Positions 800 through 39,770 of a stretch of DNA of 64,000 nt are shown here, piece after piece. Source of the DNA: a virus; IMG/VR virus record IMGVR_UViG_3300028840_006907, positions 160,001 through 224,000 of that record; one strand, written 5' to 3'. Position 1 is the stretch's first letter; every line of letters begins with the position of its first letter. Position numbers and translations under genes: made by a program. The notes beneath the pieces were generated by a model. It was not told where the DNA came from and ran no database searches. It was given only the letters and a program-made list of their open reading frames with translations.

Positions 800-1726
800 T
801 TACCTTTTATGTGTGAGTAATTTTACTTTTAGATTTTTAATATTTTCGTTTTTATTATCACTACTGATGATCTGTGATAATATATCGACAATACCTGGAT
901 TCTCCAGTTCCTGAACCATCATTTTACTTATCATACCATCAATAGAGATACAGCTATTGATTGTCATTTTTTTCATATTCTTGATATTATTCGCGTTGAC
1001 CACTTCAACGATGGTATTTATTTCACGTTTTATCTCTTCTTCAATGGATTCAATAAGGGTACCTATGACAAAGGTGCGCTCATCAGATCTAGGATCATGG
1101 GGATCATCTGCTATTACAAAAACAGCCTTACATTCTTTGACATTTGCTTTATGCAGAATATCCAGATCAGTAGGCATTCCCCTAATGAAAGAAATTTCAG
1201 TTTTAATATCTTCCGGAAGCTCTTCTAATTTTTCAGTTATTAGTACCATTTTACATTTAGAATATTTGGAAGTATTTTTTATTTCGTGAATGAAATATTT
1301 AATTTTCTTTTCATTGGGATATCCACAAAGGATAACATGATTTTTAAAGGCTATATCCATTAAGCCTCTCCTTTTCCTATTAATAAGATCGATTAATATA
1401 CTGGTTATAACACCGATTAAAGAGCCTATAATACCTATCCCAAGTATCATACAGGCATATGAAATGACAAACCGTCCTATAAAGGTTTTTGCATAAAAAT
1501 CCCCGTATCCTACGGTAGTCATTGTTACAATAGCCCACCAGATTGAATCCAGTAAAGAAATGTCTTGAGAGTCCCTTTCAACAAAATAGAAAGTAACTCC
1601 GAAGAATAGATTTAATACGGCAGCCAAACCTATTACGTATATTAAATCTCTTTTAAAGAGACTCCCAAAACGTAAAAATAATCTGAATATATTCATAAAT
1701 TTTATAATAGACCGTGGGAGAAACAA
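800..1726 (-). CDS. potassium channel with cytoplasmic RCK/TrkA-like domain
   Basis: Two hydrophobic helices flanking the K+ selectivity filter TTVGYGD, followed by a Rossmann-like stretch (HVILCGY) typical of RCK domains. Confidence 0.75.
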   Translation of the reverse strand: MFLPRSIIKFMNIFRLFLRFGSLFKRDLIYVIGLAAVLNLFFGVTFYFVERDSQDISLLDSIWWAIVTMTTVGYGDFYAKTFIGRFVISYACMILGIGIIGSLIGVITSILIDLINRKRRGLMDIAFKNHVILCGYPNEKKIKYFIHEIKNTSKYSKCKMVLITEKLEELPEDIKTEISFIRGMPTDLDILHKANVKECKAVFVIADDPHDPRSDERTFVIGTLIESIEEEIKREINTIVEVVNANNIKNMKKMTINSCISIDGMISKMMVQELENPGIVDILSQIISSDNKNENIKNLKVKLLTHKR

Positions 1727-1800
1727 CTTTAACTTTATATTTTTAATATTTAGCTTCGTTTATACGAAGAAGGGTAGATCCCCCACGGCTATGTTATTGA

Positions 1801-2448
1801 TTATAAATCATCATACCCTGGTAGATCTTGGCCTAATGCTTTTTCTGTTTCAGCATCAAGACTACCAGTAGGATCGGCACTTTGTTCAACAAGAGCATCA
1901 GAAGCATCTAACTCAGCTTGCATTTTTGCTTCTCTTTCCTTGAATTTAGCAACTGCTGACATGGAACTATCAGTATTTATTGTAGCAATGGCATCATTGG
2001 ATTTTTTAACTTCTTCCATTGTCTTCATGCGATCTATCGCACGTTTCATCGTGTCCAAATTTCCAGATAATGTAGTTACATTGCTCTCTTGCTTTTTATA
2101 AATGTTTTGATACTGTTCAAGACTCTTTTCCAGTGTCTGTAATTCGTTATCAAGTTCTAATTTAATAGCATATTGTTGTTTAGCCAGATCTTCATGTCCC
2201 GCCGTTTTTAATTTTTTTACTTTATCTATGCGACTAACAATTTCTTCTTTTTTAGTACTCACTTTTCTCTGTAAGCCCATTATTGAAGCTTTAGTATTTG
2301 CTAATCCAACTCTTGCTTTTTGAAAGTCCTCTTGTGCCTCTTCAATGTCTTGTTTAGCAAAAGCAATTCGATTTCCATCTTCAATTTTTTCTTCCACTTC
2401 GTTCATCTTTGCTTTACCAAATTTGAATATTGTTCCAAATAAACCCAT
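1801..2448 (-). CDS. PspA/IM30 (phage-shock protein A, ESCRT-III-like) family protein
   Basis: N-terminus MGLFGTIFKFGKAKMNEVEEKIED matches the PspA/Vipp1 start pattern, then long coiled coil. Start moved to the internal Met (2448), which has a GGAGGA Shine-Dalgarno 8 nt upstream; the track ORF start at 2469 lies inside that SD. Confidence 0.6.
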   Translation of the reverse strand: MGLFGTIFKFGKAKMNEVEEKIEDGNRIAFAKQDIEEAQEDFQKARVGLANTKASIMGLQRKVSTKKEEIVSRIDKVKKLKTAGHEDLAKQQYAIKLELDNELQTLEKSLEQYQNIYKKQESNVTTLSGNLDTMKRAIDRMKTMEEVKKSNDAIATINTDSSMSAVAKFKEREAKMQAELDASDALVEQSADPTGSLDAETEKALGQDLPGYDDL

Positions 2449-2452
2449 TATC

Positions 2453-2857
2453 TTATCCTCCAATTTCACTAATTTTTTTGATATTTTGACTAACTGTTAA
2501 GACCATCGATACAATTGACGCCTGCAATTCGTTAGAATCAAGGTTTGCGATTTCCAAGACATCTTTAAAAATGATTTTACCTTTACTTGTGTCCCATCCG
2601 AACCCACCGTGAACTGCTTCATCAGCATTTAGCTTTAATAGCAACTCACCAAATTCTTGTGATACTCGTTCGGCTGGACAAATATCCATGAGGAAAATTA
2701 TTGTTGTTTCCTCAACGTCAATAATTACTTCGAGCCCGGTATCGGGTTCGGTTACCAAGAAGATATCATCGGTTTTTTGTTCCGTATCGAAATCTCCTAA
2801 TTCTGTCAACATTTCGAAAACTTTAATTCCGTTTTCAATTTCTTTTTGACTTGCCAT
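2453..2857 (-). CDS. hypothetical protein
   Basis: 134-aa acidic ORF immediately upstream of PspA-like gene. Confidence 0.3.
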   Translation of the reverse strand: MASQKEIENGIKVFEMLTELGDFDTEQKTDDIFLVTEPDTGLEVIIDVEETTIIFLMDICPAERVSQEFGELLLKLNADEAVHGGFGWDTSKGKIIFKDVLEIANLDSNELQASIVSMVLTVSQNIKKISEIGG

Positions 2858-2888
2858 GATTTTTTATTCCTTTTTTATTTGTTATTTG

Positions 2889-3455
2889 TTATCTCATTGA
2901 AAGAATACTTACTTCGTGTTCTTTCACTTGACATCCATACCATATTTCTAGATATTCGTCATCATCACTACCTGACCATTCCAGAAATGCTATTGGATTA
3001 TTAATTTCACTATTCGTACCATATTCACAGATATGTAATGGCTCTCCTTCTTCTCCATTAACTTCAATTTCAACACCGAAAATAGGGGAAGATTTTTGAA
3101 TCCATGTTATATCTTCACCATCAAGTGTAATCTCGAAGTCATGTTCAAAATCTTCTCCATCTTCATCAATAATAGCTCCATAATAATCTGAAGCATCACC
3201 TTCCTGATCCAGATAGAATAATAAGATGTCAGTTACATTATCTACTTTCCGGATCATCAGCATATATTTACGTTTATCCGGAGCTATGACGATATAAGCA
3301 GTATAAGTGAAAAGATCACTTGGTTCGTGATAAATACGTACCTCTTCGATTTTGAAATCCACTCCATCACTAGCTTTAAAAGTAGCAATGGTTTGTAAAT
3401 CGGAGAGGGTCATAATATCACCTTCTCTGTGACCTAGTAATTCTTTTATTTCCAT
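2889..3455 (-). CDS. hypothetical acidic protein
   Basis: 188-aa ORF, D/E-rich. Confidence 0.3.
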   Translation of the reverse strand: MEIKELLGHREGDIMTLSDLQTIATFKASDGVDFKIEEVRIYHEPSDLFTYTAYIVIAPDKRKYMLMIRKVDNVTDILLFYLDQEGDASDYYGAIIDEDGEDFEHDFEITLDGEDITWIQKSSPIFGVEIEVNGEEGEPLHICEYGTNSEINNPIAFLEWSGSDDDEYLEIWYGCQVKEHEVSILSMR

Positions 3456-3456
3456 C

Positions 3457-4296
3457 TTAACTACCGCCCTTCATTTTAGTTATAATTACGCCAACTATTA
3501 CAGCGACAACTATAAATCCAATAAAAAGAAGAATGTACAGAACTATTTTTGCATCATTTTCATTTGTAGGTTTTCGATCTACATGTACGACTTGTGGTGT
3601 TTGTACATGTTGTACACGAGGAGTAGTTAAAGCAGTTAAAACGAGGGCATCAACAAGAAAATCATCATCGTCATAGACAACAAAAACCCCTGAGCTATTA
3701 CGATAACCGTATCTGCCATTATAAAAGTCAGTTTCATACCGTTGCCCGTTAATTTCACGGTATCTAGGAACATGATCTGGCATTACGTCAGGTTCTTTAT
3801 CATATGTTTGATTACTTAAAGATTTTCGATAAGCTGTTTCAGCTTCTTTTTTAGATTTAAAAGTTTTTCCTTTTAAAGCCTTGTGTTTTGACAGCTTTTT
3901 ATCAACAGCACTTTTCTGGGAAGCATTAAGTTTAGGAACAGTTGTAGTCTGATTTTTACTAGTTCCATCCTTTCCCTTTATAGTACTTGAACCGGTAGGT
4001 CGTGTTAAAGATGACTTGGTATTAGTACCTGTATTATTTTTTAATTCTGCAGCTTTTTTCTCAGCTTCTAATCGCTTTTTCTTTTCTGCTGCGGTTTCAA
4101 CTTTCTTCTTATCATCTTTTTTCTTTACTTTTGATGTCCCGGTAGGACGGGTAACTTGTTTCTTTTCTTGTTTCTTTTTGCTATCGCCACTCTTGCTACT
4201 ACCGGATTTTGATTTAGATTTTGCAGCATAAACATCATCAATTCCGGCACCAGAAACCAAAAGTGAAAGAAATAGAATTATAAAAATTCTTTTCAT
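3457..4296 (-). CDS. secreted/membrane-anchored lysine-rich low-complexity protein
   Basis: N-terminal signal-peptide-like segment (MKRIFIILFLSLLVSGAG), long K/S/T-rich region, C-terminal hydrophobic helix. Confidence 0.4.
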   Translation of the reverse strand: MKRIFIILFLSLLVSGAGIDDVYAAKSKSKSGSSKSGDSKKKQEKKQVTRPTGTSKVKKKDDKKKVETAAEKKKRLEAEKKAAELKNNTGTNTKSSLTRPTGSSTIKGKDGTSKNQTTTVPKLNASQKSAVDKKLSKHKALKGKTFKSKKEAETAYRKSLSNQTYDKEPDVMPDHVPRYREINGQRYETDFYNGRYGYRNSSGVFVVYDDDDFLVDALVLTALTTPRVQHVQTPQVVHVDRKPTNENDAKIVLYILLFIGFIVVAVIVGVIITKMKGGS

Positions 4297-4313
4297 AATA
4301 ACCTTCCATTTAA

Positions 4314-4338
4314 AAGTGATGGGGGCTAATGAGCCCCC
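4314..4338 (-). terminator. GC-rich hairpin (GGGGGCT/AGCCCCC) followed on the minus strand by a U-rich tract; possible intrinsic terminator or attenuator after the flotillin-like gene
   Basis: Perfect 7-bp GC-rich stem with 4-nt loop in an AT-rich background, just 3' of the stop at 4344. Confidence 0.4.
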
Positions 4339-4343
4339 TTTGC

Positions 4344-6209
4344 TTATGACGCTTCGACTTCTTCTATGAATTCTTGCTCTGCAGGTTCTGGAACTGGTTC
4401 TGTTACCTGTTCTTCGACCTGGGGAGATTCTTTAGGTTTTGTGGAAGTCATCATATTAGACACATTCTTCACTACATTTGGAAGATTATCACCTAATCCT
4501 GCTTCTTTTAATAATTGATCTACAACAGGAGCCTGAGCGCGATATCCAAGAAGTTGATCCAATAAAGATTGAGTAGAAAAACCTCCTGCAGACATTTTTG
4601 ACCCACCGTTACCATTACTATGGCCATTGCTACCGGTCAAACCTGATACGTTGATAACTTTGAAAGCTTCAATTTTTTCAAGGGGTTTTACACTGGATTC
4701 AATTACTGCTGATATGTGTTCAATTATTTGGAGTTTTACACGCATATCAACAATGTCTTTAGAGAGCCTGTTTTCAGCTTCATTGAGTTTTTCCTGACCT
4801 TCAGCTTCGACTTCGTATTTTCTTTCATCGGCATCAGCTTGAATTTTGATAGCCTCAGCTTTGGCTTTGGCTTCAATTTTGATAGCCTCAGCACGATCTT
4901 GAGCTGCTTCTTTTTCAGCCTGTGCAAGAACTTTAATTTTGGCTGCATCTGATCCGGCTACTTCTTCAGCTCTAATAATTGTAATTTCTCTGGCACGATT
5001 AGCAATTTCTTTTTCACGAGCGGTGGTTACTTTTTCCTCTGCAGAAATAGCGAGTGCTCTAGCTTCATTTGCTTCCTGATCAGCCAAAGAGGTTTCTTTA
5101 GATTTATTAGCAACTTCAATATCTCTTTCCTGTTCAGCAAGTTTTATTGCTTTCTGTTTTTCGATGGTAGCTGACTCTACTGCTTGTTCTTTAACAATAG
5201 TAGCTGATTCAATTGCTTGTTCTTTTTCAATATTGGCTTCTTGTAAAGCTTTTTCTTTTATAATATTTGCTTCGGCAATGGCTTGTTCTTTTCTAATATT
5301 CTGTTCTTCAAGAGCTTTGGTAGTTTCGATTGTTTTCTTTTTAACTTCTTTTTCAGATTCTATCCTTGCTTCTTGGGCTATCTTATTTTGTTCAGCATTA
5401 AATTTTTCTTTTGTGGCATTTTCTTCTGCTGTCCTAGTAGCAATTTCACGTTCTTGTTCAAGTCTAGAATACTCTTTTTCTTTATTAATTTTTAAAGTCT
5501 GTTGTTCAGCTTGAAGATTTTTTGTTTCAATTTTTACTAGATTATCTCTTTCAATCTCATTACGTTCTTTTCTACGCTCTTCGATGATTCTAGTTAATGC
5601 TGTCAATCCCTCAGCATCAAAAGCATTATTCTCATTGAAGTGCTCTCTACTGGTTTGATCAAAACCTGTAAGTGACACAGTTTCAAGCTCTAAGCCATTT
5701 TTCTTAAGGTCTTCCAGAACATTGTTTTGGACTTTTTGCACAAAATCAGCACGTTGCTCATGCAGTTCTCTCATTTGCATTTGAGCAGCAACAGCTCTTA
5801 AGGCGTCAACGAATTTACCTTCAATAAGTTCACGTAGTTTCTCTGGGTCAAGAGTGCGGTCACCAAGAGTTTGAGCGGCATTTGCTATGGAATCAGCTTC
5901 TGGTTGTACCCGCATATAAAACTCTACAAGAACGTCAACTCTCATACGATCTTTTGTAATTAATGCGTCCTTTTCATTTCTTCTTACCGGTAATTTTAAA
6001 GTACTAAGTTTTACCCAGGTTATTTGATGAAGTACAGGTAATACTACTGCTCCACCTTCTTTTATAACTTTTTTCTTGCCCATACCAGTACGGACAAAAG
6101 CCATATCAGATGAAGCTTTTACGTACATCCTAGCAATAATTAATCCTATAACAATTAGTGCCACTAGGATTATACCTGCCATAATTAAAATAGGCATAAG
6201 GTTTTCCAT
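4344..6209 (-). CDS. SPFH/band-7 (flotillin-like) protein with long repetitive coiled coil
   Basis: N-terminal TM helix then SPFH-domain-like sequence (VRTGMGKKKVIKEGGAVVLPVLHQ...), long E/K/A-rich coiled coil with internal repeats (EKEQAIESATIVKEQAVESATIEKQKAI). SD AAAGGGA upstream of start. Confidence 0.7.
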   Translation of the reverse strand: MENLMPILIMAGIILVALIVIGLIIARMYVKASSDMAFVRTGMGKKKVIKEGGAVVLPVLHQITWVKLSTLKLPVRRNEKDALITKDRMRVDVLVEFYMRVQPEADSIANAAQTLGDRTLDPEKLRELIEGKFVDALRAVAAQMQMRELHEQRADFVQKVQNNVLEDLKKNGLELETVSLTGFDQTSREHFNENNAFDAEGLTALTRIIEERRKERNEIERDNLVKIETKNLQAEQQTLKINKEKEYSRLEQEREIATRTAEENATKEKFNAEQNKIAQEARIESEKEVKKKTIETTKALEEQNIRKEQAIAEANIIKEKALQEANIEKEQAIESATIVKEQAVESATIEKQKAIKLAEQERDIEVANKSKETSLADQEANEARALAISAEEKVTTAREKEIANRAREITIIRAEEVAGSDAAKIKVLAQAEKEAAQDRAEAIKIEAKAKAEAIKIQADADERKYEVEAEGQEKLNEAENRLSKDIVDMRVKLQIIEHISAVIESSVKPLEKIEAFKVINVSGLTGSNGHSNGNGGSKMSAGGFSTQSLLDQLLGYRAQAPVVDQLLKEAGLGDNLPNVVKNVSNMMTSTKPKESPQVEEQVTEPVPEPAEQEFIEEVEAS

Positions 6210-6244
6210 TTGTTAAATCCCTTTCAGTTGATTTTTTAATTTAA

Positions 6245-6949
6245 TTAAAGTTCATTTTCGATACATCTAAATGTACCGTCTTTCTCCTTTCGAATTATTA
6301 AGACCTCATCACCAGCTTTAAATTCAGCGTCATCTTCTTCGGGTTCCAGGTAAACAAGATGTTGCTGTCCGTGTTTATCTTTAAGCCGTGCTTCAGCTCT
6401 AAGACCTCTTTTTGTACTACCAACAGTAATAGTTGCAAGGGTTCCAATAAATTCATCAGATGAGACCGCAGTGCTCTCATCTTTGAATGCAATATGACTG
6501 CATAATTTTGATATATAACGTGATATCAAAATCGAAAGAACAAAAGAGGCTGGCACAATTATAAACCATGGAAAGTAATGACTAGTATATTTTTTTATAT
6601 AAAATTGACCTATTAGACCTATACCGGAGAATGAAGATAAAAATATGATGAAGTAAACGAGCATCGGTACTTTTCCTTTCACCCAAATAAATAGCTTGGA
6701 TAAAGCAGGAACACTTGCTCCTTCTCCTACATCAGCTTCTACATCTACATCTGCGTCAGCATCTATGTCAATTTCAATTTCAGGTACGTCTATATCTGGT
6801 ACATCTACGTCAGCATCAAAATCTGGAATTAATCCATCTAGGAAACCAGAGATCACTCCGGATGAGAGTACTTCTAATAAAAAAATTAATACTAACAATA
6901 CTAATGCTACTGAAAAGGCCGTATTTTCAGTAGAAAGAAAGAGTTCCAT
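6245..6949 (-). CDS. NfeD-like membrane protein (SPFH partner)
   Basis: Hydrophobic helices, acidic DV/DI repeat, C-terminal short beta-rich domain (GDEVLIIRKEKDGTFRCIE) as in NfeD OB-fold; directly upstream of the SPFH gene. Start set at internal Met with AAGGAAG SD. Confidence 0.5.
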   Translation of the reverse strand: MELFLSTENTAFSVALVLLVLIFLLEVLSSGVISGFLDGLIPDFDADVDVPDIDVPEIEIDIDADADVDVEADVGEGASVPALSKLFIWVKGKVPMLVYFIIFLSSFSGIGLIGQFYIKKYTSHYFPWFIIVPASFVLSILISRYISKLCSHIAFKDESTAVSSDEFIGTLATITVGSTKRGLRAEARLKDKHGQQHLVYLEPEEDDAEFKAGDEVLIIRKEKDGTFRCIENEL

Positions 6950-7076
6950 TTTACTTCCTTCTTTGTAATTTGTAAATCTTATGGTTTTGGTTAATAGTGT
7001 ATTGAGACTTTTATGGTTAAAGGATTGGTTATTGCTATATTGTCCTCCTTTCAATTATTTAATTGAATATATTTAT

Positions 7077-7970
7077 TTAAGCAGCTCTACTCATATTATA
7101 TATGTTACCCATTTTTCTAAATTCTTCTTCGTCAATTTGAATCATGTTAAGGAATGCAATGACGTTATCAGTAGGTGGTATATTAGAATCTTTGATCCGT
7201 ACACAAACTTCCTCAATAATTTTTCCAGCTTTCCATACTCTGGTATGCGACCGGTTTCTATATACCTGATAGATTTTACCACTCTGCCCCTTTACCAGGA
7301 CAAAACCGTATTTGATGTATTTTCTAAATTCAGCTTCAGTGATCTCTTCGCGTAGGGTTTCGATTGCAATCTGTTCATTCTCAGGAATATTGCTTATAGG
7401 ATTGGCTCTTGATCTGATATTTATAGCTAAGTTTCTTCTGAAGTTATCTTTGATTTGCTGTCTCTTGATCTCTTTTTGTATTTCACTATAATTATCATCA
7501 CCTTTAAAGGTGAGAGTAGGCCAACTTATATAACCATCAATATTTGGATATTCTATAATGTACTTTGATGGATCGTAAGTATATTGAGCTGAATCTACAA
7601 CTCTTATTTCAGCCCCACTTGTTGCTGATCTTGTGGTAGGACTGTAATAAATTTCTGTTTTGGTAGCTGTACCTGTCCCTTGATAGACAGCATTGGTAGA
7701 CCCTGTGTCAAATATACAATTTCCAGATATTTTAATGGTAGATCCCGTGCTTCCACTATAGATATAATTAGCTGCTGATCCCGATGTAATATTGATCCTA
7801 GTAGTGTTAGCAGTACTACTTGTTGATACCAAGGCATCATATTCCGAGTATCTATCAGAGGTAATTGTACTGTTAGGGAAATAATCATTATTATTGTTTG
7901 CTCCACTTGGAGGATAATATAGGTATTTATCAGAAAATTCGAAAGTAGCTGGTGTAGCCATTATCAGCAA
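7077..7970 (-). CDS. hypothetical protein, S/T/G-rich N-terminal half
   Basis: 297-aa ORF. Confidence 0.3.
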   Translation of the reverse strand: MLIMATPATFEFSDKYLYYPPSGANNNNDYFPNSTITSDRYSEYDALVSTSSTANTTRINITSGSAANYIYSGSTGSTIKISGNCIFDTGSTNAVYQGTGTATKTEIYYSPTTRSATSGAEIRVVDSAQYTYDPSKYIIEYPNIDGYISWPTLTFKGDDNYSEIQKEIKRQQIKDNFRRNLAINIRSRANPISNIPENEQIAIETLREEITEAEFRKYIKYGFVLVKGQSGKIYQVYRNRSHTRVWKAGKIIEEVCVRIKDSNIPPTDNVIAFLNMIQIDEEEFRKMGNIYNMSRAA

Positions 7971-8338
7971 TCCTTTAAATGATTAATAAGTTTTTGTTTG
8001 ATACTACTACTGTTGTCAAGAAGGAATATGTTAAATTTACCTTGTTTTTTAATTAAACATAGACTGGTCTTAGTATTGCCTTGAATTTCTACCATGCCCT
8101 CTTTCTTTTTGAGTGCGTTAAAAGATTCCTCAACTTCCTTTTTTAAATCTTCCAAATCTAATTCAAATTTTATACTTCTGGAATCATCATGGAAATGGAT
8201 ATCTCCATTATTTACATGTATTCTTAGACCTGAAATTGTATCTTCGTTTGTACCACCCATAGTATTTTAATCCCTGTTTTATGGTCACCGGAGAAAGGTT
8301 GAAGCCCTCTCCGATGGTTCAAATTTATATAACTGCAA

Positions 8339-9160
8339 TTAAGCAGCCATGTTTTTTTGTTCTTCTAATTGATTTATTTTCATAAATATTTGTAAGGCTT
8401 TAGCGACTTCATCTATCCCCCAGAGTTCATAGTCCAGAAATTTAATCATGTCTGTTGGATCAGATCCGAGGATAGCAAAGGAATAAAGAATACCTGGCAT
8501 AATTGTCCCTATATCCCGAATGTAAAATTCCATGTTATTCTGACCATAGAATTCTCTTTTAATATCTGCTTCCATAACCCCTGTATCCATATATTTTGTA
8601 GCGCACCAAGCTACATGGTTGCCGTGTAATATATGTCTCATTTCCTCTGAATTAGCATTCTTTAAAGCAGCCGTTAACATATTTAAGACAGCTTTTTCAG
8701 TGTAGAGCACATCTTTTGAACCAAGAAAAGAGGAAATACTTTTAGCTAAAGACATAGTTGCTGTCTCGTTACTTATTCGGGCCTTTTCCGGTAAATCCTC
8801 AAATTTAACATAATTAGGATTCCACACTTTTTCTATTGGTTCAGCATCCGATTGAATACCTAAAGCTAACATCGCTTCTTTGGACAGATCTCTGACAAAA
8901 ACAGCATTTTTTTCTTTTCCTGTAAATGTGTAATCTCCCATTGGACCTCCTCCATACTCTATTCTGTACGTATCGCCAATTGGAAAAAAACCTCGGAAAG
9001 GATGATCTGGATTTTTTAAAAGTTTGGTTTGTCCTTCATACCATAATTGGTGAGGTAGGCGAGATGGTATGGCCATATTTTTGAGAAGATAGAGATAAAA
9101 GGCACTCCCACTTCCCGGAATACTACTCGCATTTTTTGTAGGATAATATCCCATAATCAC
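8339..9160 (-). CDS. hypothetical protein
   Basis: 273-aa ORF, no motif recognised. Confidence 0.3.
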   Translation of the reverse strand: MIMGYYPTKNASSIPGSGSAFYLYLLKNMAIPSRLPHQLWYEGQTKLLKNPDHPFRGFFPIGDTYRIEYGGGPMGDYTFTGKEKNAVFVRDLSKEAMLALGIQSDAEPIEKVWNPNYVKFEDLPEKARISNETATMSLAKSISSFLGSKDVLYTEKAVLNMLTAALKNANSEEMRHILHGNHVAWCATKYMDTGVMEADIKREFYGQNNMEFYIRDIGTIMPGILYSFAILGSDPTDMIKFLDYELWGIDEVAKALQIFMKINQLEEQKNMAA

Positions 9161-9615
9161 ATACTCCTTTATGATTTAAATGTATGTTTATGTTATTTAT
9201 GACTAACTTTTTCCAAGCATCTCCTCTTCACACTTAGAAAAAAGTTGTTTTCTATTCTTAAAATACAGATTCCACTAGTTTAAAAAAGAATTGTGAACTC
9301 TGTTTTATATATTCAGACCCTTCCCGTAAAACGAAAGGCATTTTCTTCTCAAAATCTTCTAAAATATCTTTAGCTTTCTTTTTATCTTTCCCCATTACAG
9401 TGATCATAATATTATATGAATCACCATCAGGAGTTCTGACTATGCAATCTCTTTGGGATATTAAAACCATTAATGAATCTGAAGGTGTAGCTCCTTTTAC
9501 ACGTAAAGCGTATTTTTTTACTCCTGGAAATCCTAAAGAAAGTTCAAAGAAGTCATTGGAATAACGTTCTATGTGTTCTCTAATATCATCATTAACAGTA
9601 CCGACTTTTACAGCA

Positions 9616-10002
9616 TTATCTTCCATTCTGGCGTTCCTTTACAACTATTAATTTTGCTTCTTCCCAATTTTCCTGAAAGAATTCTCCAATACCTTTAAAA
9701 ATGAAATACAGAGATACTATAAGAGTCCCTATAGAAAGTATTTGCATTCCTAGAAAAGTACTTTGAAATAAGAAATGGTATCTAGGTAAAGAATCTACAG
9801 CCAATGCTATGAAATTATTTGAATAAACTAAATTGCTTGAATGAAGAAATCCGAGAATGATTGAACCTATAATAGTTGCCCCTATTAATACACTTAACAG
9901 AAATAAGGAAACGTATTTATACATTTTTACCGTTGCTTCACCAAAAAATAATTCTGTTATTTCTTGGAATTTCAATCTGAGAAATATTTGGAAGGTTCTC
10001 AT
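9616..10002 (-). CDS. small membrane protein
   Basis: 128-aa ORF with several hydrophobic helices. Confidence 0.3.
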   Translation of the reverse strand: MRTFQIFLRLKFQEITELFFGEATVKMYKYVSLFLLSVLIGATIIGSIILGFLHSSNLVYSNNFIALAVDSLPRYHFLFQSTFLGMQILSIGTLIVSLYFIFKGIGEFFQENWEEAKLIVVKERQNGR

Positions 10003-10885
10003 ATTTTATCCTTTCGCGGTTTTGGGTACCATTAGAATTTCTTCGGCATCAACATCAAATTCAACAATTTTACGGTTTCTTTTACCATCCCTATCTACGC
10101 TATAAGCTTTCCATCCATCTTTTAACAATTGATTGAATCGTTCTTTAGCTTGTTTGGCTTCAATACCATCGTCTTTATCCCATACTATTCTTTCATCACC
10201 TTTTTGATTGAGGATTTTCATTTCATGCTTTTTAGTTACCTTTTTGGCTAGTACAACTATTTCTTCTAATGCTGGGTTAAATCTTTCGATAATAGCCGTT
10301 TTGCTTTCATTGGTAAATTGATAACCTTGTCTTTTATATCTCATAAACATAGTTTTGGCTTGATCGATTTGTTTTAAATGAGTTTTATCCCACATGATGC
10401 GAGTGTCTAAGACGAGTTCCATTATTTACCTCCCTTTTTCTTGGTCTTCTTTGCGATGCCTATTATACTTTTTAGTTTAGCCATCATACTGAATTCTGGC
10501 CTCTCTAGTGAAATGACTATATCACCATCTTTACAGGTAAATATGAGTGTATCATTATCCCCTGAACCAGGAATTTTTTTAACATCATCTTCTTTAAGAG
10601 AATTCAGATCAAGTTCATTGATGGCATCTTCGAAAAGGTCACAATCTTTTTTAAAGAGGAGTTTACCATCAGTGATATGGACAACACCACGTTTGAAAAC
10701 TTTGTAAGTAAGGCCACTTATTTTTCCCTCTTCTACGACATTTTGCTCTCTAGATTTTTTAGAGACTTTTCTCTTCGATTTAAATTCGAGGACATTCTTT
10801 TTTTTATTCATAATCAACCCTCATCAATAATAATTACTTTATGTATTAGCTTCATTACAATTACAATATCTATGTTTATTTATAA

Positions 10886-11299
10886 TCATGCTCTGAGAGA
10901 GAATTTTTCTTTCCATAACCGTCTCATAAATCCGTTAGCTGTCTGTAAATTATCTTCAGTTGTTTCTTCCTGATAATCCCGACATGATGCTAACATGGGC
11001 CGAAGATCATCTACAATAGGACTATTTTGGTTATCGAAAAATCTATCACCAGTAATTTCTCCATTCTCAATTTTCCTATAATGTATATGTCCACAGTTAG
11101 GGCAATGTACACGATGATTCCCATTCAAAGACATATTCATTTTGATATCAAAATATTTCCCACAGCTACTACAATAAAATTCTACCTTTTGACGCATCCC
11201 TTTTACCTTGTCTTGGCCCTTTTTGGTACAGTTTGTTATATATTTTACGAGATTAAGAACCCGTTTCATTAAGTAAATTTTTTTAAATTTTTTAGGCAA
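10886..11299 (-). CDS. zinc-ribbon protein
   Basis: CSSCG...CPNCGH paired CxxC. Confidence 0.3.
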   Translation of the reverse strand: MPKKFKKIYLMKRVLNLVKYITNCTKKGQDKVKGMRQKVEFYCSSCGKYFDIKMNMSLNGNHRVHCPNCGHIHYRKIENGEITGDRFFDNQNSPIVDDLRPMLASCRDYQEETTEDNLQTANGFMRRLWKEKFSLRA

Positions 11300-11711: not shown

Positions 11712-12353
11712 ATGAAAAATTTGGGCAAAACAATTGATCGATTAATCTCAATTGACCAGGGTCTTGAAAAATCTTTAAAACCCATAAAAAACAAATGGAA
11801 ACGATGGCCTAAAAGAACTATGAACTATTGGGCTGAACTTCTGGAAGTTTTAAATTCGGATGATTTGATGGAGCATCCTGATCGTGATAAAATGAGTCAA
11901 GTTCTTAATGATGCCAAAAAAAGGAAACGTCCTAATTATTCTTTTGAAGTAATATCAATGCATGATAGGATTGTAGGTCCTTTAACAGGTCTTTTAGCTG
12001 ATAAAATAAGACGTTTGGATCTCAGATCAATAAAAATAGGAAGAGACCGTGCTGAGGCTAATATGACGCATAATTTAAAGATGCAGATTGATGTGGCACG
12101 AAGAGAGCAACTTTTAGAAATTGAAACCAAAAAAATATGGGTTGCTTTAAGAGATGAATTTAAATTATGGACAAAGCCTGGTTATTACAATATCAAAGTT
12201 TCAACTGAAAATAATATCCTTTATATGGTGGAACAACTCCCACAACCTCAGTTGGTCGGACCAGGTGTAATAAAGATGAATCCGGATATGTTAAAAAAAT
12301 TTTTTGATTTTATGGGGATGGATCCTCCCCCCGAACTTTTTGGAGGTAAATAG
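11712..12353 (+). CDS. hypothetical protein
   Basis: 213-aa ORF, first gene of a three-gene plus-strand island. Confidence 0.3.
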   Translation: MKNLGKTIDRLISIDQGLEKSLKPIKNKWKRWPKRTMNYWAELLEVLNSDDLMEHPDRDKMSQVLNDAKKRKRPNYSFEVISMHDRIVGPLTGLLADKIRRLDLRSIKIGRDRAEANMTHNLKMQIDVARREQLLEIETKKIWVALRDEFKLWTKPGYYNIKVSTENNILYMVEQLPQPQLVGPGVIKMNPDMLKKFFDFMGMDPPPELFGGK

Positions 12354-12889
12354 TGATCAGAGCATTAAGAGTAGTTGAAGCATATTTAAAAGAAGCCTAT
12401 GATTTCAGCTCAGTCCAGGCTGAATTTCCTGAGAAGATAGCCCAGGAGCTTCGGGATTGGGGGTATAAACATATTCCTGAAGAAGCTCTTTCTGGTGACG
12501 GGTTTGAAGATGATAAACATGTGACTATTAAGTACGGAATCCATATTAATGATTTTACTGAAATAAGAGATCTGTTTAAAGATGAAAAACCGATAGAGAT
12601 GGTCCTTGGTAAAATGACCCTTTTTACTTCAAGTCCTGATTTTGATGTATTGAAAATTGATATTAAATCACCGGCTCTGCATCGATTAAACAAAGCTGTA
12701 TCAAAAAATTTTGAAGTCACAGATACACATCCAGAATACCTACCCCATTGCACAATAGCATATGTGAAGAAAGGTGCTGCAGATCCCTTTAATGGCGATA
12801 CTACATTTGAGGGTCGTAAGGTAATATCAGATTTAATTCTTTTTTCAGGAAAAGATAATCGTCATACGGAATTTAAATTGGTTAAATAA
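12353..12889 (+). CDS. 2H phosphoesterase (LigT/2'-5' RNA ligase / cyclic phosphodiesterase family)
   Basis: Two H-x-T-x motifs (DKHVTIKYG and LPHCTIAYV) at the spacing expected for the 2H fold. Confidence 0.55.
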   Translation: MIRALRVVEAYLKEAYDFSSVQAEFPEKIAQELRDWGYKHIPEEALSGDGFEDDKHVTIKYGIHINDFTEIRDLFKDEKPIEMVLGKMTLFTSSPDFDVLKIDIKSPALHRLNKAVSKNFEVTDTHPEYLPHCTIAYVKKGAADPFNGDTTFEGRKVISDLILFSGKDNRHTEFKLVK

Positions 12890-13681
12890 ATGAAATACGA
12901 TGTGATCATAATAATAGGTGGTGGTATTAATAAAGACGGTGACCTTCCTGAAGAGGCATCATTACGGGTCAAGGAAGGGGTAAAGAAGTATAATGATGGT
13001 ATTGCCCCGAAAATATTGATGTCAGGGCGTTGGGGTAAAGATATAGATTTTACTCCGAAGAAGAAAGAAGCAATAGCTATGAAAGAGATGGCTGTTGATT
13101 TAGGTGTACCATCCAAGGATATTTTAATTGAAACTAGGGCTATGGATACTTTAAGTAATGCTAAAGAATCTAAAAAAATTATTGATAATAGTGATTGGAA
13201 AAATATTCTTGTTGTAACCTTGGATTTTCATAAGGATCGGACTGAAAAAATATTTAGAGATATTTTCGGTGATTCTTATAATATAGATGTCTATGGAGGT
13301 AAGAGTAATTTAGAAGAGTCATTATATAAGAGACATCTGAAAATGGAAGATTTAAAAATGAAAAGATATGAGAGACAGAAAAAGTTTTCTTCTATAATAG
13401 ATACACTTGATCAAATTGCTGATGATATAGAATTACAGGATAAAAGAATTGCTCTGGCAATAGATATTGTCAGTGATCAAATAGAGAAGAGGGCTTTTTT
13501 CAATCAATCCACTTGGTTACCTGGGCGTTGTACAAGAACATATCCAAATAGGAATCAGAAATCTCATAGTAGATATGAGAAAAGAGCTACTTATATATGT
13601 ATTGCTTGTAATTTACGAAGATATTCGGCGAGTGAGTATTGCCCTCGATGCGGTCATTCTATGCAAAAGATCTTCTGCTAG
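12890..13681 (+). CDS. DUF218/YdcF-like domain protein with C-terminal zinc ribbon
   Basis: IIIIGGGINKDG...ILMSGRWG pattern typical of YdcF/ElyC-like domain; C-terminal CIACN...CPRCGH. Confidence 0.4.
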   Translation: MKYDVIIIIGGGINKDGDLPEEASLRVKEGVKKYNDGIAPKILMSGRWGKDIDFTPKKKEAIAMKEMAVDLGVPSKDILIETRAMDTLSNAKESKKIIDNSDWKNILVVTLDFHKDRTEKIFRDIFGDSYNIDVYGGKSNLEESLYKRHLKMEDLKMKRYERQKKFSSIIDTLDQIADDIELQDKRIALAIDIVSDQIEKRAFFNQSTWLPGRCTRTYPNRNQKSHSRYEKRATYICIACNLRRYSASEYCPRCGHSMQKIFC

Positions 13682-13937
13682 GTGTTCTTTTCCTAGCTTC
13701 ATTAATTTTTAGATTTCTACCACCTAATTCTCTGTTATTTAAGTTAGAGATAGCATCATCTGCTTCGCTATCCTTACTCATTTCGACAAAACCAAAACCT
13801 CGTGAACGGCCTGTATCACGATCTTTAATGATTTGAGCTGATACAACTGTACCAAAAGTACTGAAAAGTTCTTTTAATTCATCTTCTGTGGTTTTCCATT
13901 GAAGATTACCAACATAAATTTTCTTGTTTGGCAACAT
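13659..13937 (-). CDS. RRM-type RNA-binding protein
   Basis: RNP-2 (IYVGNL) and RNP-1 (RGFGFVEM) motifs at canonical spacing. Confidence 0.7.
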   Translation of the reverse strand: MLPNKKIYVGNLQWKTTEDELKELFSTFGTVVSAQIIKDRDTGRSRGFGFVEMSKDSEADDAISNLNNRELGGRNLKINEARKRTPSRRSFA

Positions 13938-13982
13938 ATCCTCCGATTAATTTTAAATAAATTTAGTAGGCAGTAATATAAT

Positions 13983-14906
13983 TTAAATGCCTGTTTGTAG
14001 TCTATAACTGATTAAAACTCTTTTTTGTATTGTATTTCCATAAATTCTGTGATCGAAAGCATCTTTCCCTTTTGTCTTTACCCATAAAAAGCCGTCTTTA
14101 TATTTAACTAGTGCGAATTGGCCTTTTAATTTTTTTCCATTAAAATTGAGAATATACTTGGTATCTCCTTCGGAATAAATAAGATCGAAAGTACCTTTAT
14201 CCCAAATTTTAACTTTACCTGCACCATAACCATCTTTTATTTCACCTTCGAATTGGCCATAAGCTATGGGATGATCTTCAGTTTCAATCAGATATACTTT
14301 GTTCTTTCTGGTAGGAATTTCGCGCAGTTTATTAACGAAAGACCTGTATACTGTTCCTGGATCCTTTGATCCTTTACCTGTAGGTTCATTGGTTTGAGGT
14401 CTCTTTTTATCATAGTTTTTAAGGGATCTTTCTAGTGATTTTACGGGGAATTCAAGTCTAACATCCCAATGTTTTCCAGCTTTGTCAGCTTCATGATTAT
14501 GGATAACGAATTTACCTTTATAACCTTGTTTCATTTTTTCCAGGTCATATCCGGCTGTAATAGTTCTGACTATATGAGATTCACCATTTATGCTTCGATT
14601 TATGATTGATGCAATTTTTTTGGATAACTTTTTATATTCTTCTGCGAAGGCATCAAATTTTTGAATAGCTTTTTTGATCTCATATTCTTTTACACCAGAA
14701 AGTGCTATTACAATTTGAGAGTCTTTTCGGTTAATGGTAAAACCGTGTTTACTTGCTATTTTAAAAACTCTTTTAGAAGGTTCATTATTAAAAATAAAAG
14801 CCCAATGATTTTTATACCATCCTAAACTAGCGGGTTTTTCTGGTATTAGGGCTTCAGCAGCATTTATGAGAGGTCCCTCTAAATGTATATGAGCTATTTT
14901 ATCCAT
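13983..14906 (-). CDS. protein with LigD-type 3'-phosphoesterase (LigD_N/PE) domain
   Basis: C-terminal half matches the LigD PE signature: FVIHNHEADKAGKHWDVRLE ... EDHPIAYGQFEGEIKDGYGAGKVKIWDKG. Confidence 0.65.
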   Translation of the reverse strand: MDKIAHIHLEGPLINAAEALIPEKPASLGWYKNHWAFIFNNEPSKRVFKIASKHGFTINRKDSQIVIALSGVKEYEIKKAIQKFDAFAEEYKKLSKKIASIINRSINGESHIVRTITAGYDLEKMKQGYKGKFVIHNHEADKAGKHWDVRLEFPVKSLERSLKNYDKKRPQTNEPTGKGSKDPGTVYRSFVNKLREIPTRKNKVYLIETEDHPIAYGQFEGEIKDGYGAGKVKIWDKGTFDLIYSEGDTKYILNFNGKKLKGQFALVKYKDGFLWVKTKGKDAFDHRIYGNTIQKRVLISYRLQTGI

Positions 14907-15768
14907 AAGTTTCTGTTAATACCGGTTTCTTACCTTTAAGTTTTAACCATTCATATTTCTTTTTGTTGTTTTTTAAATGGTTTAAATATTCTTCTGTAAC
15001 AGTGATTTCTTTAAATTCCCCATCTATAAATTCATTTATTACTTCTCCTACTTTAGGAAGGGGCTCTTCTGAAAGTGGGGTTGAAGGGATTGTTTCTCCT
15101 TTTTGATGTTGTTGCTCTCGTTTTCTTAACCTTTTTATTTTACTTACTTCTGCTGGTGAAAGGGGTTCACCATAAAGGCTTTCTTTTTTAAGATAAGCTG
15201 ATAATACTCTGTGGGCAGCTTCTTTATTTTTTGTATCCTCCATATTAATTGACGCTCCTTCTCTATATTTATTTATAACTTTCATAGCTTTCTTTTTTCG
15301 TTGTCTCCACATATTGAGACATTGAGCCACTGCTTCATCATGGTCTTTTTTCTCAACTTTTAATAATTGGTGCATACAAGCAGACATCCATTCTTTTTCA
15401 TTTTTAAATTTATTTGGATTAGGCATATCAATAACCTTTTTTAAAGATGTTTTTATTTTGATATCTGTAAAAGCTCTTTTAAGAATATCTTCAGTTTCTT
15501 CAATTCCTTCGAGATAGGATTTAAATTCCTCCGGTCTTAGATAGACGAGAAGACGTAGAAATTCCCCGGCATGAACAACTTCTTCTTCTGCGATATCTCT
15601 CAATACATTCTCAACTTTACTATCTTTTATAGAATCAGCCAATTGGGTATATAATTGAACCGCTTCATATTCTGCTGCAATTAAAAATCTAATCGCTCTT
15701 ATAATCTCTTCTTTATCTAAATTTCGGTCATTTCTCAATCCCGAAAAAGGTGTCCCAAAGTCAGGCAT
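14899..15768 (-). CDS. ferritin-like (rubrerythrin/EncFtn-like) domain protein
   Basis: Helix pair with AAEYEAVQLY and EEEVVHAGEF (E...E / ExxH diiron-type motifs); remainder K-rich. Confidence 0.35.
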   Translation of the reverse strand: MPDFGTPFSGLRNDRNLDKEEIIRAIRFLIAAEYEAVQLYTQLADSIKDSKVENVLRDIAEEEVVHAGEFLRLLVYLRPEEFKSYLEGIEETEDILKRAFTDIKIKTSLKKVIDMPNPNKFKNEKEWMSACMHQLLKVEKKDHDEAVAQCLNMWRQRKKKAMKVINKYREGASINMEDTKNKEAAHRVLSAYLKKESLYGEPLSPAEVSKIKRLRKREQQHQKGETIPSTPLSEEPLPKVGEVINEFIDGEFKEITVTEEYLNHLKNNKKKYEWLKLKGKKPVLTETYG

Positions 15769-38488: not shown

Positions 38489-38805
38489 TATTCTCCCTCG
38501 TCGTTATCGGTGTCATCATCATCTATATCAATTAAGATGTAACTGAATTGATCAAGTGTTTGTAAAGAGTGCCCAATTAATTTTGTTATATAATCTAAAA
38601 GTTTTTCCTTTAAAGGATCTTCCGATTTAAGAATGGTATAAGAATCTAGTGATTTACCAAATACATCGGATATAGATTTCAGTTTAAACTTCACAGCATC
38701 TAAAACCTGAAGTAAAGAATCGTTGTTCTGTTGGTCACTATTAAGTTTTTCCATATACTCCTTAAATTTATCATCCCCATATTCAGGGTCATTATTATTA
38801 CTCAT
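38488..38805 (-). CDS. small acidic protein
   Basis: 105 aa, ends in DDDDTDNDEGE. Confidence 0.3.
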   Translation of the reverse strand: MSNNNDPEYGDDKFKEYMEKLNSDQQNNDSLLQVLDAVKFKLKSISDVFGKSLDSYTILKSEDPLKEKLLDYITKLIGHSLQTLDQFSYILIDIDDDDTDNDEGE

Positions 38806-39086
38806 TTTTGTCTATTCCTTTAAAATTGATAGAAGCTATCCTATATAATGATATGGAACTAACAAGGGTTTTCGATAAGTAAAAAATAAAAAAAGTTTTT
38901 AAGTCTAATGGTTTGAGTAAGTTACAAGAGGTAATTTTAGGTTTAAAAAAACCATGTTTTTTGATAAGAATATATAATATAGAGTATAAATAATCCTGTT
39001 TTTATGATTTACTAAAAAAGTAATTAATATAAATAGCTATATGAATATGTATATATGAATATAGTTATTTATTTTTTCCTGAATAA

Positions 39087-39149
39087 GGAAAAGTAAAATA
39101 AAAAAGAACAGAAAAATAGTAGTAGAAGAAGAGAGGAATGAGGATTAAA
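39087..39149. repeat. 63-bp direct repeat, copy 1
   Basis: Identical to 40188..40250. Confidence 0.9.
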
Positions 39150-39395
39150 AAAGATATAGATGATATAAAAAGAACCAATATAATGAATTTAATAGTAAAA
39201 ATAAAAATTTAAGTCACCAATATAATGAATAAACTTATGAACAAAGTAAAAATATAACCTATAAAATCTTCAAAAAAAGTTAAATCATAACCTTATTTAT
39301 TCGAACCAGTTATAACAAAAAAAATAAAACCTTAAAAATTTTACTTATCACTTTACCTTTCTAACTTTGTATAAATAGTAGGAGGTAAATTTGAA

Positions 39396-39770
39396 ATGAA
39401 CACAATTTTTATCACAGGTTTGGATAAAATCTCTATTAAAAGATTCATCCAATTTATTCTAAAATACTTAAATGATTACCAAGTTGGTACACTTCATTAC
39501 TTAATGAGTGAAGAGAGCATAAACTATTACATCGAAGATTTTTCAAATAAATTTCAAAAAAGGATCTTCTCTTACTTCTTAAGGAAATCAGGAGATTCTA
39601 TACCCAATCTTCCTACTTCAATAACTGATAGTGCTGATCTTATCATATGGTTTGATTTATACAGTACTAAACCAATAGTTAAACAGAGTAAGACAGAACC
39701 GCATATTCTTAAAGGGGCTCTTATGGATTGGGCAAGACACATAGAGAAATTAGAGAAAGGGGGATTGTAG
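39396..39770 (+). CDS. hypothetical protein
   Basis: 124-aa ORF with AGGAGG SD; lies between the 63-bp repeats. Confidence 0.35.
   Translation: MNTIFITGLDKISIKRFIQFILKYLNDYQVGTLHYLMSEESINYYIEDFSNKFQKRIFSYFLRKSGDSIPNLPTSITDSADLIIWFDLYSTKPIVKQSKTEPHILKGALMDWARHIEKLEKGGL

Follow-up and report, generated by a model that had tools for sequence, protein, structure and literature searches.

In the present study, we analysed a window of 64,000 nucleotides (positions 160,001 to 224,000 of the IMG/VR virus record IMGVR_UViG_3300028840_006907) and found, at positions 800-6949, seven co-oriented minus-strand genes that form a membrane-related module on the replicon of a huge phage. In transcription order, these genes encode a YqiJ-family protein, a flotillin, a Lys-rich membrane protein (p279), an acidic protein (p188), a CesT/Tir-like protein, PspA and a K+ channel; a first-pass annotation of the same region had counted six. 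The reading that we favour, and hold to be somewhat probable by analogy with bacterial operons, is that the module is a phage-encoded version of the bacterial PspA-centred envelope-stress system, which would act on the host cytoplasmic membrane during infection. Domain identity, topology, synteny and conservation are observed here, and the function of the module is what we infer from them, with its recurrence across divergent phages as the main argument.

The intergenic gaps within the module are 1-47 nt, with 104 nt ahead of the K+ channel gene, and a transmembrane (TM) scan predicts four membrane proteins and three soluble ones. We consider the module genes to be real because their products give significant domain matches and because the ratio of nonsynonymous to synonymous substitution rates (dN/dS) reaches only ~0.1-0.26 against orthologues on L008, a collinear contig (the contigs and loci compared here carry L numbers). 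Indeed, all six shared window/L008 pairs fall in this range, which shows purifying selection on these orthologues, the ratios being approximate as dS is saturated.

The two genes transcribed first form an adjacent pair. The YqiJ-family inner-membrane protein (6245-6949, minus strand; ATG at 6949 with AAGGAAG ahead of it) has 234 residues, three TM segments and a C-terminal OB domain, and matches the Pfam models YqiJ_N (3.8e-21, 75.9 bits) and YqiJ_OB (1.1e-20, 73.8 bits). Since these models match and the NfeD Pfam model itself is absent among the hits, the family is YqiJ, and the 'flotillin-NfeD pair' of the first-pass annotation is more precisely a flotillin with a YqiJ-family partner that has an NfeD-like OB fold. 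The flotillin (4344-6209, minus strand) follows after a 35-nt gap and is of the YqiK type, its 621 residues comprising an N-terminal TM segment (residues 7-25), an SPFH/Band_7 domain (9e-18, 65.4 bits), a coiled coil and a Flot domain (4.8e-37, 127.3 bits). Its identity is 50-55% to the flotillins of Microbulbifer, Balneolaceae and Chitinivibrionales, and higher (56-63%) to proteins encoded on phage-like contigs. The adjacency of YqiJ and flotillin genes is also seen in L003, L006, L008, L010, L011 and L019, in the isolated phage Phosso and in Microbulbifer.

At the other end of the module, the CesT/Tir-like chaperone-fold protein (2453-2857, minus strand; 134 residues, D+E 0.20) matches CesT_Tir_1 (PF22550) at 4.5e-19, with 69.1 bits for a cut-off of 27, and is 32% identical to the CesT_Tir_1 protein encoded beside PspA in a Chitinivibrionales metagenome-assembled genome (MAG; L013). 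Its gene ends at 2453, directly upstream of pspA on the same strand with a 4-nt gap, and the same CesT/Tir-PspA dyad occurs in L008, L013, L015, L016 and L019. The ESCRT-III-like PspA that had been recognised from the letters alone was recovered (1801-2448, minus strand; 215 residues, YjfJ-like subfamily), with a PspA_IM30 match of 1.3e-17 (PF04012; 64.6 bits for a cut-off of 33.9) that places residues 10-211 on profile positions 2-200 of 220. Its start was set at Met8 from the alignment with Escherichia coli YjfJ, to which it is 25% identical from that residue, and from the Joint Genome Institute (JGI) gene call. The N-terminus MG.F..IF..GKA is common to the PspA of the window, L008, L015 and L013 and to YjfJ, and is not shared by the PspA of the loci that carry a PspA-YqiJ-flotillin trio. 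Neither the flotillin nor the CesT-like protein matched a PDB entry.

Between these two pairs lie the genes of p279 and p188. The p279 protein (3457-4296, minus strand) is a predicted bitopic membrane protein with a signal-like N-terminus, 16% Lys and a C-terminal TM anchor, and thus the signal-peptide Lys-rich protein noticed at first sight. Homologues occur in L008, L015, L016, L017 and L019, and the alignment with L008 and L015 shows a common build in this family: a signal peptide, low-complexity sequence rich in Lys or Ser, a P/Y/G-rich stretch and an anchor at the C-terminus, with a conserved motif KSKxEAExAYRxxL; no family was found for it in Pfam, NCBIfam, PHROG or PADLOC. The p188 protein (2889-3455, minus strand) is acidic (D+E 0.23), soluble, all-beta and without family match. 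Two acidic proteins without assignment had been announced in this region, and both are indeed acidic, p188 keeping that description and the other being the CesT/Tir partner of PspA. The p188 family is small, with nine homologues in a collection of 5.8 billion sequences and 104 representatives reached by its profile among 1.84 billion sequences, and has a conserved C-terminal motif AFLEW.G...LE.WYGC. Its AlphaFold model, built on a 60-sequence alignment, is nearly all beta (predicted local distance difference test score of 95.9) and matched nothing in PDB or BFVD; the N-terminal fusions of long family members contain no Pfam domain.

The last gene encodes an MthK-like K+ channel with two TM segments (800-1696, minus strand; TM residues 18-36 and 84-102), supported by Ion_trans_2 (1.8e-14, 53.8 bits), Slo-like_RCK (2.5e-11, 43.7 bits) and TrkA_N (1.7e-5, 25.6 bits). 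Its TVGYGD filter is invariant with respect to the bacterial homologues aligned, and the channels encoded in the Chitinivibrionales MAG and in a second contig are 49-55% identical to it. The first-pass annotation had described a TVGYGD channel with an RCK-like domain: the filter and the two TM segments hold, and the RCK part is reduced to its N-lobe, without TrkA_C. Indeed, the protein ends ~65 residues short of all seven bacterial homologues aligned, and most of the ~360-residue homologues listed carry TrkA_C. A shift of this lobe into another frame was considered and rejected, as no trace of it is left in the 1 kb downstream or elsewhere in the window. Moreover, the truncated protein recurs unchanged on three or more contigs drawn from several public sources, which means that the truncation is not an assembly accident. 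The closest solved relative is MthK of Methanothermobacter (PDB 1LNQ and others; 5e-19 over pore and RCK N-lobe), which is Ca2+-gated and shares the two TM segments and the TVGYGD filter; the window channel stops ~38 residues past the aligned N-lobe, without the C-terminal RCK subdomain, and its gating probably differs from that of its bacterial relatives.

The replicon that carries the module is, as judged from its genes, a huge tailed phage of ~390 kb. The window corresponds to ~216-280 kb of a 388,651-bp contig from a sediment metagenome (JGI 3300017963, Ga0180437_10000019), and that contig, as well as others of up to 469,617 bp, encodes exactly this flotillin. Of this contig, ~84 kb was read in total, including 8 kb past the far end of the window (L018). 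A terminase large subunit of 630 residues (L018:13574-15466, i.e., window position 65144 onward) lies ~1.1 kb past the window end and matches three TerL PHROGs (1e-12 to 6e-5); by tblastn, 91% of its length aligns at 35.5% identity with a sequence of the uncultured 485-kb phage LR745208.1, and the terminase annotated in Tunturiibacter phage Tunturi_5 (309 kb) shares 27.5% identity with it. A phmmer search against PDB gave no match, so that the call relies on PHROG profiles and tblastn. Directly after the terminase gene, past the replication block, a giant tail-fibre-like open reading frame (ORF; L018:15470-20584, more than 1,700 residues read, 2,337 according to JGI) matches many tail-fibre PHROGs (3e-62), in part through collagen-like repeats. 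The window itself encodes a UvsX-like recombinase, a sliding clamp, several clamp-loader subunits, a primase, a RuvC-like resolvase and an NAD ligase, together with SbcCD-like nucleases, a ribonucleotide reductase, a Dda/ExoV helicase, an RNA ligase and a sigma factor; it contains no tRNA gene, and the majority of its small ORFs have no family match. The contig size, the terminase, the tail-fibre-like ORF and the phage-type replication genes together decide for a phage. The first-pass annotation had left the choice between a phage and a plasmid or small chromosome to a search for terminase, capsid and portal genes: the first was found and the other two do not occur in the ~84 kb read. Its view of the genes as a phage investment in host-membrane manipulation stands, since the contig is not an ordinary bacterial chromosome segment. 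The stress island that it proposed for a plasmid or small chromosome has to be given up as far as the replicon is concerned, and the gene set matches a bacterial PspA-centred system and not a loose collection of stress genes.

Parts of the module recur in at least five phage-like lineages. The closest relative, L008 (29.5 kb), is collinear with window positions 1801-9626 at 50-74% identity and has the order YqiJ-Flot-p279-p188-CesT-PspA, without a channel. On L019 (47 kb, 44% GC), p279-p188-CesT-PspA is followed by a K+ channel of the GluR0 type and, 5.4 kb on, by YqiJ-Flot, and the module genes are the only genes that this contig shares with the window. The IMG/VR viral contigs L014 and L015 (119 and 211 kb) carry p279-p188-CesT-PspA-p273 and then, again, a GluR0-type channel. 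In these phage channels (L015:10308-11345 and L019:2837-3898), a periplasmic SBP_bac_3/glutamate-receptor ligand-binding domain surrounds a TTVGYGD pore with an Ion_trans_2 match, so that two lineages have a GluR0-type channel in place of the MthK-like one. The core genes are also present on L016 and L017, with no channel in the available sequence, and a trio in bacterial order (PspA-YqiJ-Flot), with another PspA subfamily and no channel, is carried by L003 (398 kb) and L006 (48.5 kb). Finally, YqiJ-Flot occurs on the 381-kb IMG/VR contig L011 and, as YqiJ-Flot-XpaC-TelA, on the 480-kb IMG/VR contig L010 and in the 469-kb isolated Sinorhizobium phage Phosso. These arrangements suggest that p279-p188-CesT-PspA is the conserved phage core, that a K+ channel, of one gating type or the other, often adjoins it, and that YqiJ-Flot is a frequent companion which also occurs alone. 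Because two non-orthologous channel types stand beside the same PspA core, we argue that the function includes K+ conductance. Note that the relatives were recovered from IMG/VR only when an alignment was used as query (the single flotillin sequence retrieved none), and that neither a 9-kb megablast query of 50,697 phage records nor an exact DNA search of IMG/VR gave a match.

Within this core, p188 and p279 appear to be confined to phage-like contigs and absent from cellular genomes. A scan of 185,579 species, with one genome per species, gave two hits for p188/p279, both on MAG contigs of less than 4 kb that carry the phage-type module. No deposited phage record contains p188, the CesT-like protein or PspA, and PHROGs includes K+-channel pore families and none for PspA, CesT, YqiJ, p188 or p279. 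The possibility that p188 and p279 are the unannotated proteins of the Chitinivibrionales operon in L013 was rejected, as no match was found.

The GC-rich hairpin that had been pointed out after the flotillin gene is confirmed (GGGGGCT-CATT-AGCCCCC; 4321-4338, minus strand), with a 7-bp stem including six G-C pairs, a 4-nt loop, a position 5 nt past the flotillin stop codon and a fold energy of z = -3.5 compared with shuffled sequences. A GC-rich hairpin lies 3' of the flotillin stop in each of the nine loci examined. In L003, L006, L019, L011, L010 and Phosso, where the operon ends, it is followed by a T-run and constitutes a canonical intrinsic terminator, whereas in the window and L008 the T-run is degenerate and four or five further genes lie downstream; the stem sequence differs between these two. 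The T-run is thus lost just where more genes follow, which is consistent with two modules having been fused into one transcription unit, and the window/L008 hairpin may be a former terminator that became a leaky terminator or a stabiliser when the modules were joined.

Our favoured reading, a PspA-centred envelope-stress system in phage hands, would work as follows. The flotillin and the YqiJ-family protein would assemble a membrane microdomain or cage, which would recruit or organise PspA at the inner leaflet, as YdjI does in Bacillus subtilis. PspA would polymerise on the stressed membrane and limit ion leak, and the CesT-like protein would hold, control or deliver PspA. The p279 protein, with its extracytoplasmic low-complexity domain and C-terminal anchor, and p188, a cytoplasmic beta protein, could be a phage-specific sensor/adaptor pair that occupies the place of the PspB/C-type partners of classical systems. 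The channel would pass K+, so that membrane potential and turgor are reset. The net effect would be a host kept sealed and energised for the duration of a long replication cycle and spared the premature depolarisation that would abort infection or trigger early lysis. Membrane potential control, envelope repair and microdomain scaffolding, the functions supposed in the first-pass annotation, may accordingly be those served here. If this holds, phages of very large size, whose replication cycles have to be long, actively maintain the integrity and energisation of the host membrane. PspA owes its name, phage shock protein, to the fact that phage products induce the PspA of the host. Here, in contrast, the phage brings its own PspA, with a flotillin and a K+ channel.

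Several observations weigh against this reading. Promoter-like sites are no more frequent in the module than in shuffled sequence, and we claim no promoter; as a consequence, the operon structure is inferred from gene spacing alone. The channel is absent from L008, the closest relative, and is thus dispensable for the rest of the module, and its truncation could mean decay and not adaptation. An amphipathic N-terminal helix of PspA is predicted and weakly supported: the segment MGLFGTIFKFGKAKMNEV has a hydrophobic moment of 1.19, compared with 0.66 +/- 0.33 for shuffles, 6.7% of which reach 1.19. Finally, the roles proposed for p188 and p279 are guesses, neither family having a characterised function.

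A bolder form of the envelope-stress reading, which we regard as doubtful, is that huge phages maintain membrane homeostasis in the host through an organelle of their own. The p279-p188-CesT-PspA core would sense the state of the envelope by means of p279 and p188, which are not known from cellular genomes and one of which has a fold without solved relative, and a K+ channel and a flotillin cage would be coupled to this core. If true, the phage and not the host would set membrane potential and integrity, for purposes such as defeating depolarising abortive-infection systems, timing lysis or building membrane structures; this would represent a new class of phage host takeover and would give ESCRT-III-type PspA proteins an input module of a new kind. 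For the study of how PspA, a CesT-like chaperone, flotillin/NfeD and a K+ channel cooperate, the module, if it works as proposed, offers a compact natural combination, in which the p188 and p279 families are candidate PspA partners; phage Phosso, which is culturable and carries the flotillin pair, provides an experimental entry point.

The channel is also where another explanation begins, namely that the phage deliberately manipulates membrane potential for host takeover or superinfection exclusion. The channel, deregulated by the loss of TrkA_C, would then be the effector that blocks the DNA entry of competing phages or reprogrammes transport, and PspA and flotillin would only guard against self-inflicted stress. 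That a viral channel can depolarise the host has a precedent in the chlorovirus channel Kcv. The missing regulatory C-lobe, the two gating types of channel found beside the PspA core in three phage lineages, and the K+-channel-like phage families already in PHROGs all fit this explanation. However, the PspA core is kept without a channel in L008, L016 and L017 as far as their sequence is available, as is PspA-YqiJ-Flot in L003 and L006, which indicates that the conserved unit is the PspA/flotillin part and not the channel; in addition, bacteria hold the same channel type inside a stress operon, so that a homeostatic role is more economical. We therefore consider potential manipulation unlikely.

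Many abortive-infection effectors target the membrane, and the module could be a counter-defence that neutralises such permeabilising effectors, or its PspA a decoy or sink for a PspA-tethered immune component such as the cyclase of a CBASS system. This would agree with the Acb2/Tad1-hairpin anti-defence protein encoded 2.6 kb from the flotillin gene in L019, and with the reversible conjugation of a CBASS cyclase to PspA reported in Bacillus (PMC11153139). However, PADLOC defence models gave only weak coiled-coil matches among the module proteins (PspA to JetC/LmuB), which we judged spurious, and no tie links the host to CBASS. Counter-defence, which we take to be quite unlikely, overlaps with membrane sealing in the envelope-stress reading and does not exclude it.

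As for the origin of the genes, they could be neutral passengers, i.e., a bacterial stress island recently acquired by horizontal transfer and without role in infection. Huge phages carry many host-like genes, the flotillin, YqiJ and channel proteins are 45-55% identical to bacterial proteins, and Chitinivibrionales-type bacteria are among the best-named hits for the flotillin and for the channel, which is a weak hint of Chitinivibrionales as donor or host. However, gene order and content are conserved across contigs that share almost nothing else, dN/dS is well under 1, the GC content of 33% in the phage region fits a phage and not bacterial donor loci (51-54%), and p188 and p279 turned up on phage-like contigs alone in the scan of 185,579 species; passengers are thus very improbable. 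Still more remote is the idea that PspA and flotillin mould the host membrane into vesicles, or into a compartment that serves assembly or protects the genome: PspA/ESCRT-III proteins do remodel membranes, flotillins are reported to form dome-shaped membrane cages (PMC13000311), and the phage is very large, but the bacterial prototypes of these operons are stress systems and no nuclear-shell or other compartment gene occurs in the 84 kb examined.

Around the module, a 273-residue unannotated protein with an invariant HGNH.AWC motif (p273; 8339-9160, minus strand) co-occurs with module genes in five phage-like lineages (window, L008, L006, L015 and L016), its homologues in the latter four being 55-70% identical and encoded beside or near the module. 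It matched nothing in Pfam, PHROG, PDB or deposited phage records, and its membership of the module is uncertain. Upstream of the YqiJ gene, window positions 7077-7970 encode a member of a family with a conserved C-terminal domain of ~110 residues; two paralogues flank the module in L008 (L008:2016-2900 and L008:8195-8926), the second occupying the place of the K+ channel. On the contig beyond window position 1 (L002:16267-21866), an acyl-carrier-protein-like gene, an NAPRTase gene and a PP2C phosphatase/Ser-Thr kinase pair lie near the module, and the latter pair is also found in L008 (L008:12449-15844). A rhomboid protease gene adjoins the PspA module in a phage contig (L015:6305-6838) and likewise stands beside a bacterial spermine-synthase/K+ channel/CesT/PspA operon (JGI 3300042731 contig). 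Downstream of the flotillin gene in L019 (L019:14336-21737), the Acb2/Tad1-hairpin protein is accompanied by an S-adenosylmethionine decarboxylase (a polyamine link), a PARP-like protein and an ADP-ribosylglycohydrolase, and the trio-type contig L006 has, 4.6 kb downstream of its flotillin gene, a transposase-like gene (L006:8445-9812; phrog_506, 2e-15).

Elsewhere in the window, five successive co-oriented ORFs of 122-138 residues without family match (9258-11299) may be a paralogous array. A short plus-strand islet within the minus-strand block (11712-15768) encodes a 213-residue protein, a 2',5'-RNA-ligase-like protein and a DUF218 protein, and adjoins a LigD_N-like and a rubrerythrin-like gene. 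At ~38500-39400, both the coding strand and the GC skew switch sign between the NAD ligase (minus) and the clamp-loader/ribonucleotide reductase block (plus), which may represent a divergent transcription point or a replication origin. The large subunit of the ribonucleotide reductase (44003-48085) has 1,360 residues, and the phage profile aligns only from ~residue 535, indicating a large N-terminal extension or insertion.

Compared with known systems, the module combines elements of two classes of CesT/Tir-PspA dyad operons, one of which adds a TM-band-7-flotillin and a YqiJ/YuaF protein, while the second, with its ligand-gated K+ channel, is linked to polyamines (Ravi et al. 2024, PMC11237479). 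As an example of the flotillin/YqiJ class, Pseudomonas aeruginosa bacABCD (PA3732-PA3729) has been described (PMC10948618), and we found PspA-YqiJ-Flot on a Microbulbifer chromosome with a flotillin 55% identical to that of the window. The operons of this class share with the window a CesT/Tir-like protein, PspA, YqiJ and flotillin, with CesT upstream of PspA and YqiJ upstream of flotillin. In contrast, the window order is permuted, with YqiJ-Flot first, the dyad last and p279 and p188 in between, and the module is phage-borne and lacks the AAA+ ATPase. The polyamine-linked class is represented by the Chitinivibrionales MAG (L013) and the second contig (JGI), both with a 7TM-spermine synthase, an unassigned gene, DUF350, another unassigned gene, the K+ channel, CesT_Tir_1 and PspA. 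The similarity of the channels and the adjacency of CesT_Tir_1 and PspA are common to these operons and the window, whereas in the window the channel follows PspA instead of preceding CesT and has no TrkA_C; p188 and p279 have no counterpart in L013, and neither a spermine/spermidine synthase nor DUF350 (YjfL) nor ATP-grasp occurs among the seven window genes or their neighbours. Altogether, the comparison suggests that the polyamine-linked class is the likely source of the channel and dyad, and that the module joins the YqiJ-Flot pair of the first class to the channel and dyad of the second, without the polyamine genes.

Three further systems resemble parts of the module. In B. subtilis pspA-ydjGHI (samGHI), the SPFH protein YdjI is reported to be needed to link PspA to the membrane (PMC8581546), and PspA is, as in the window, genetically coupled to an SPFH protein and membrane partners. 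However, YdjI belongs to another SPFH subfamily, without Flot domain or YqiJ partner, its membrane partners are YdjG and YdjH, and the operon is a chromosomal stress operon. Phosso and L010 resemble the window as huge phages with a YqiJ-flotillin pair beside other envelope-stress genes, and differ in that the partners are TelA and an XpaC-like protein instead of PspA, CesT, p188 and p279, that no K+ channel is present, and that the flotillin is 38-41% identical. In E. coli yjfIJKLMC, the PspA paralogue YjfJ is preceded by the CesT/Tir-superfamily protein YjfI. Equating the middle genes of the window with this operon was rejected, as PspA, with YjfJ, is the one product that aligns: the match of the CesT-like protein is to PF22550 and not DUF2170, and BLASTP and hhalign gave no significant match between it and YjfI (DUF2170), between p188 and YjfK (DUF2491) or between p279 and YjfM (DUF1190). 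Among phages, the jumbo-phage reviews searched make no mention of PspA, flotillin, SPFH or potassium channels, and no paper joining huge or jumbo phages with SPFH or flotillin was among the top-ranked results of a combined literature search; the nearest literature precedent comes from Jug phages, for which a pspA-like gene beside terD and a Ca2+ ATPase have been noted. Both the families of these proteins and the classes of bacterial operon were known before; what is new is their phage carrier together with two uncharacterised partner families, p188 and p279.

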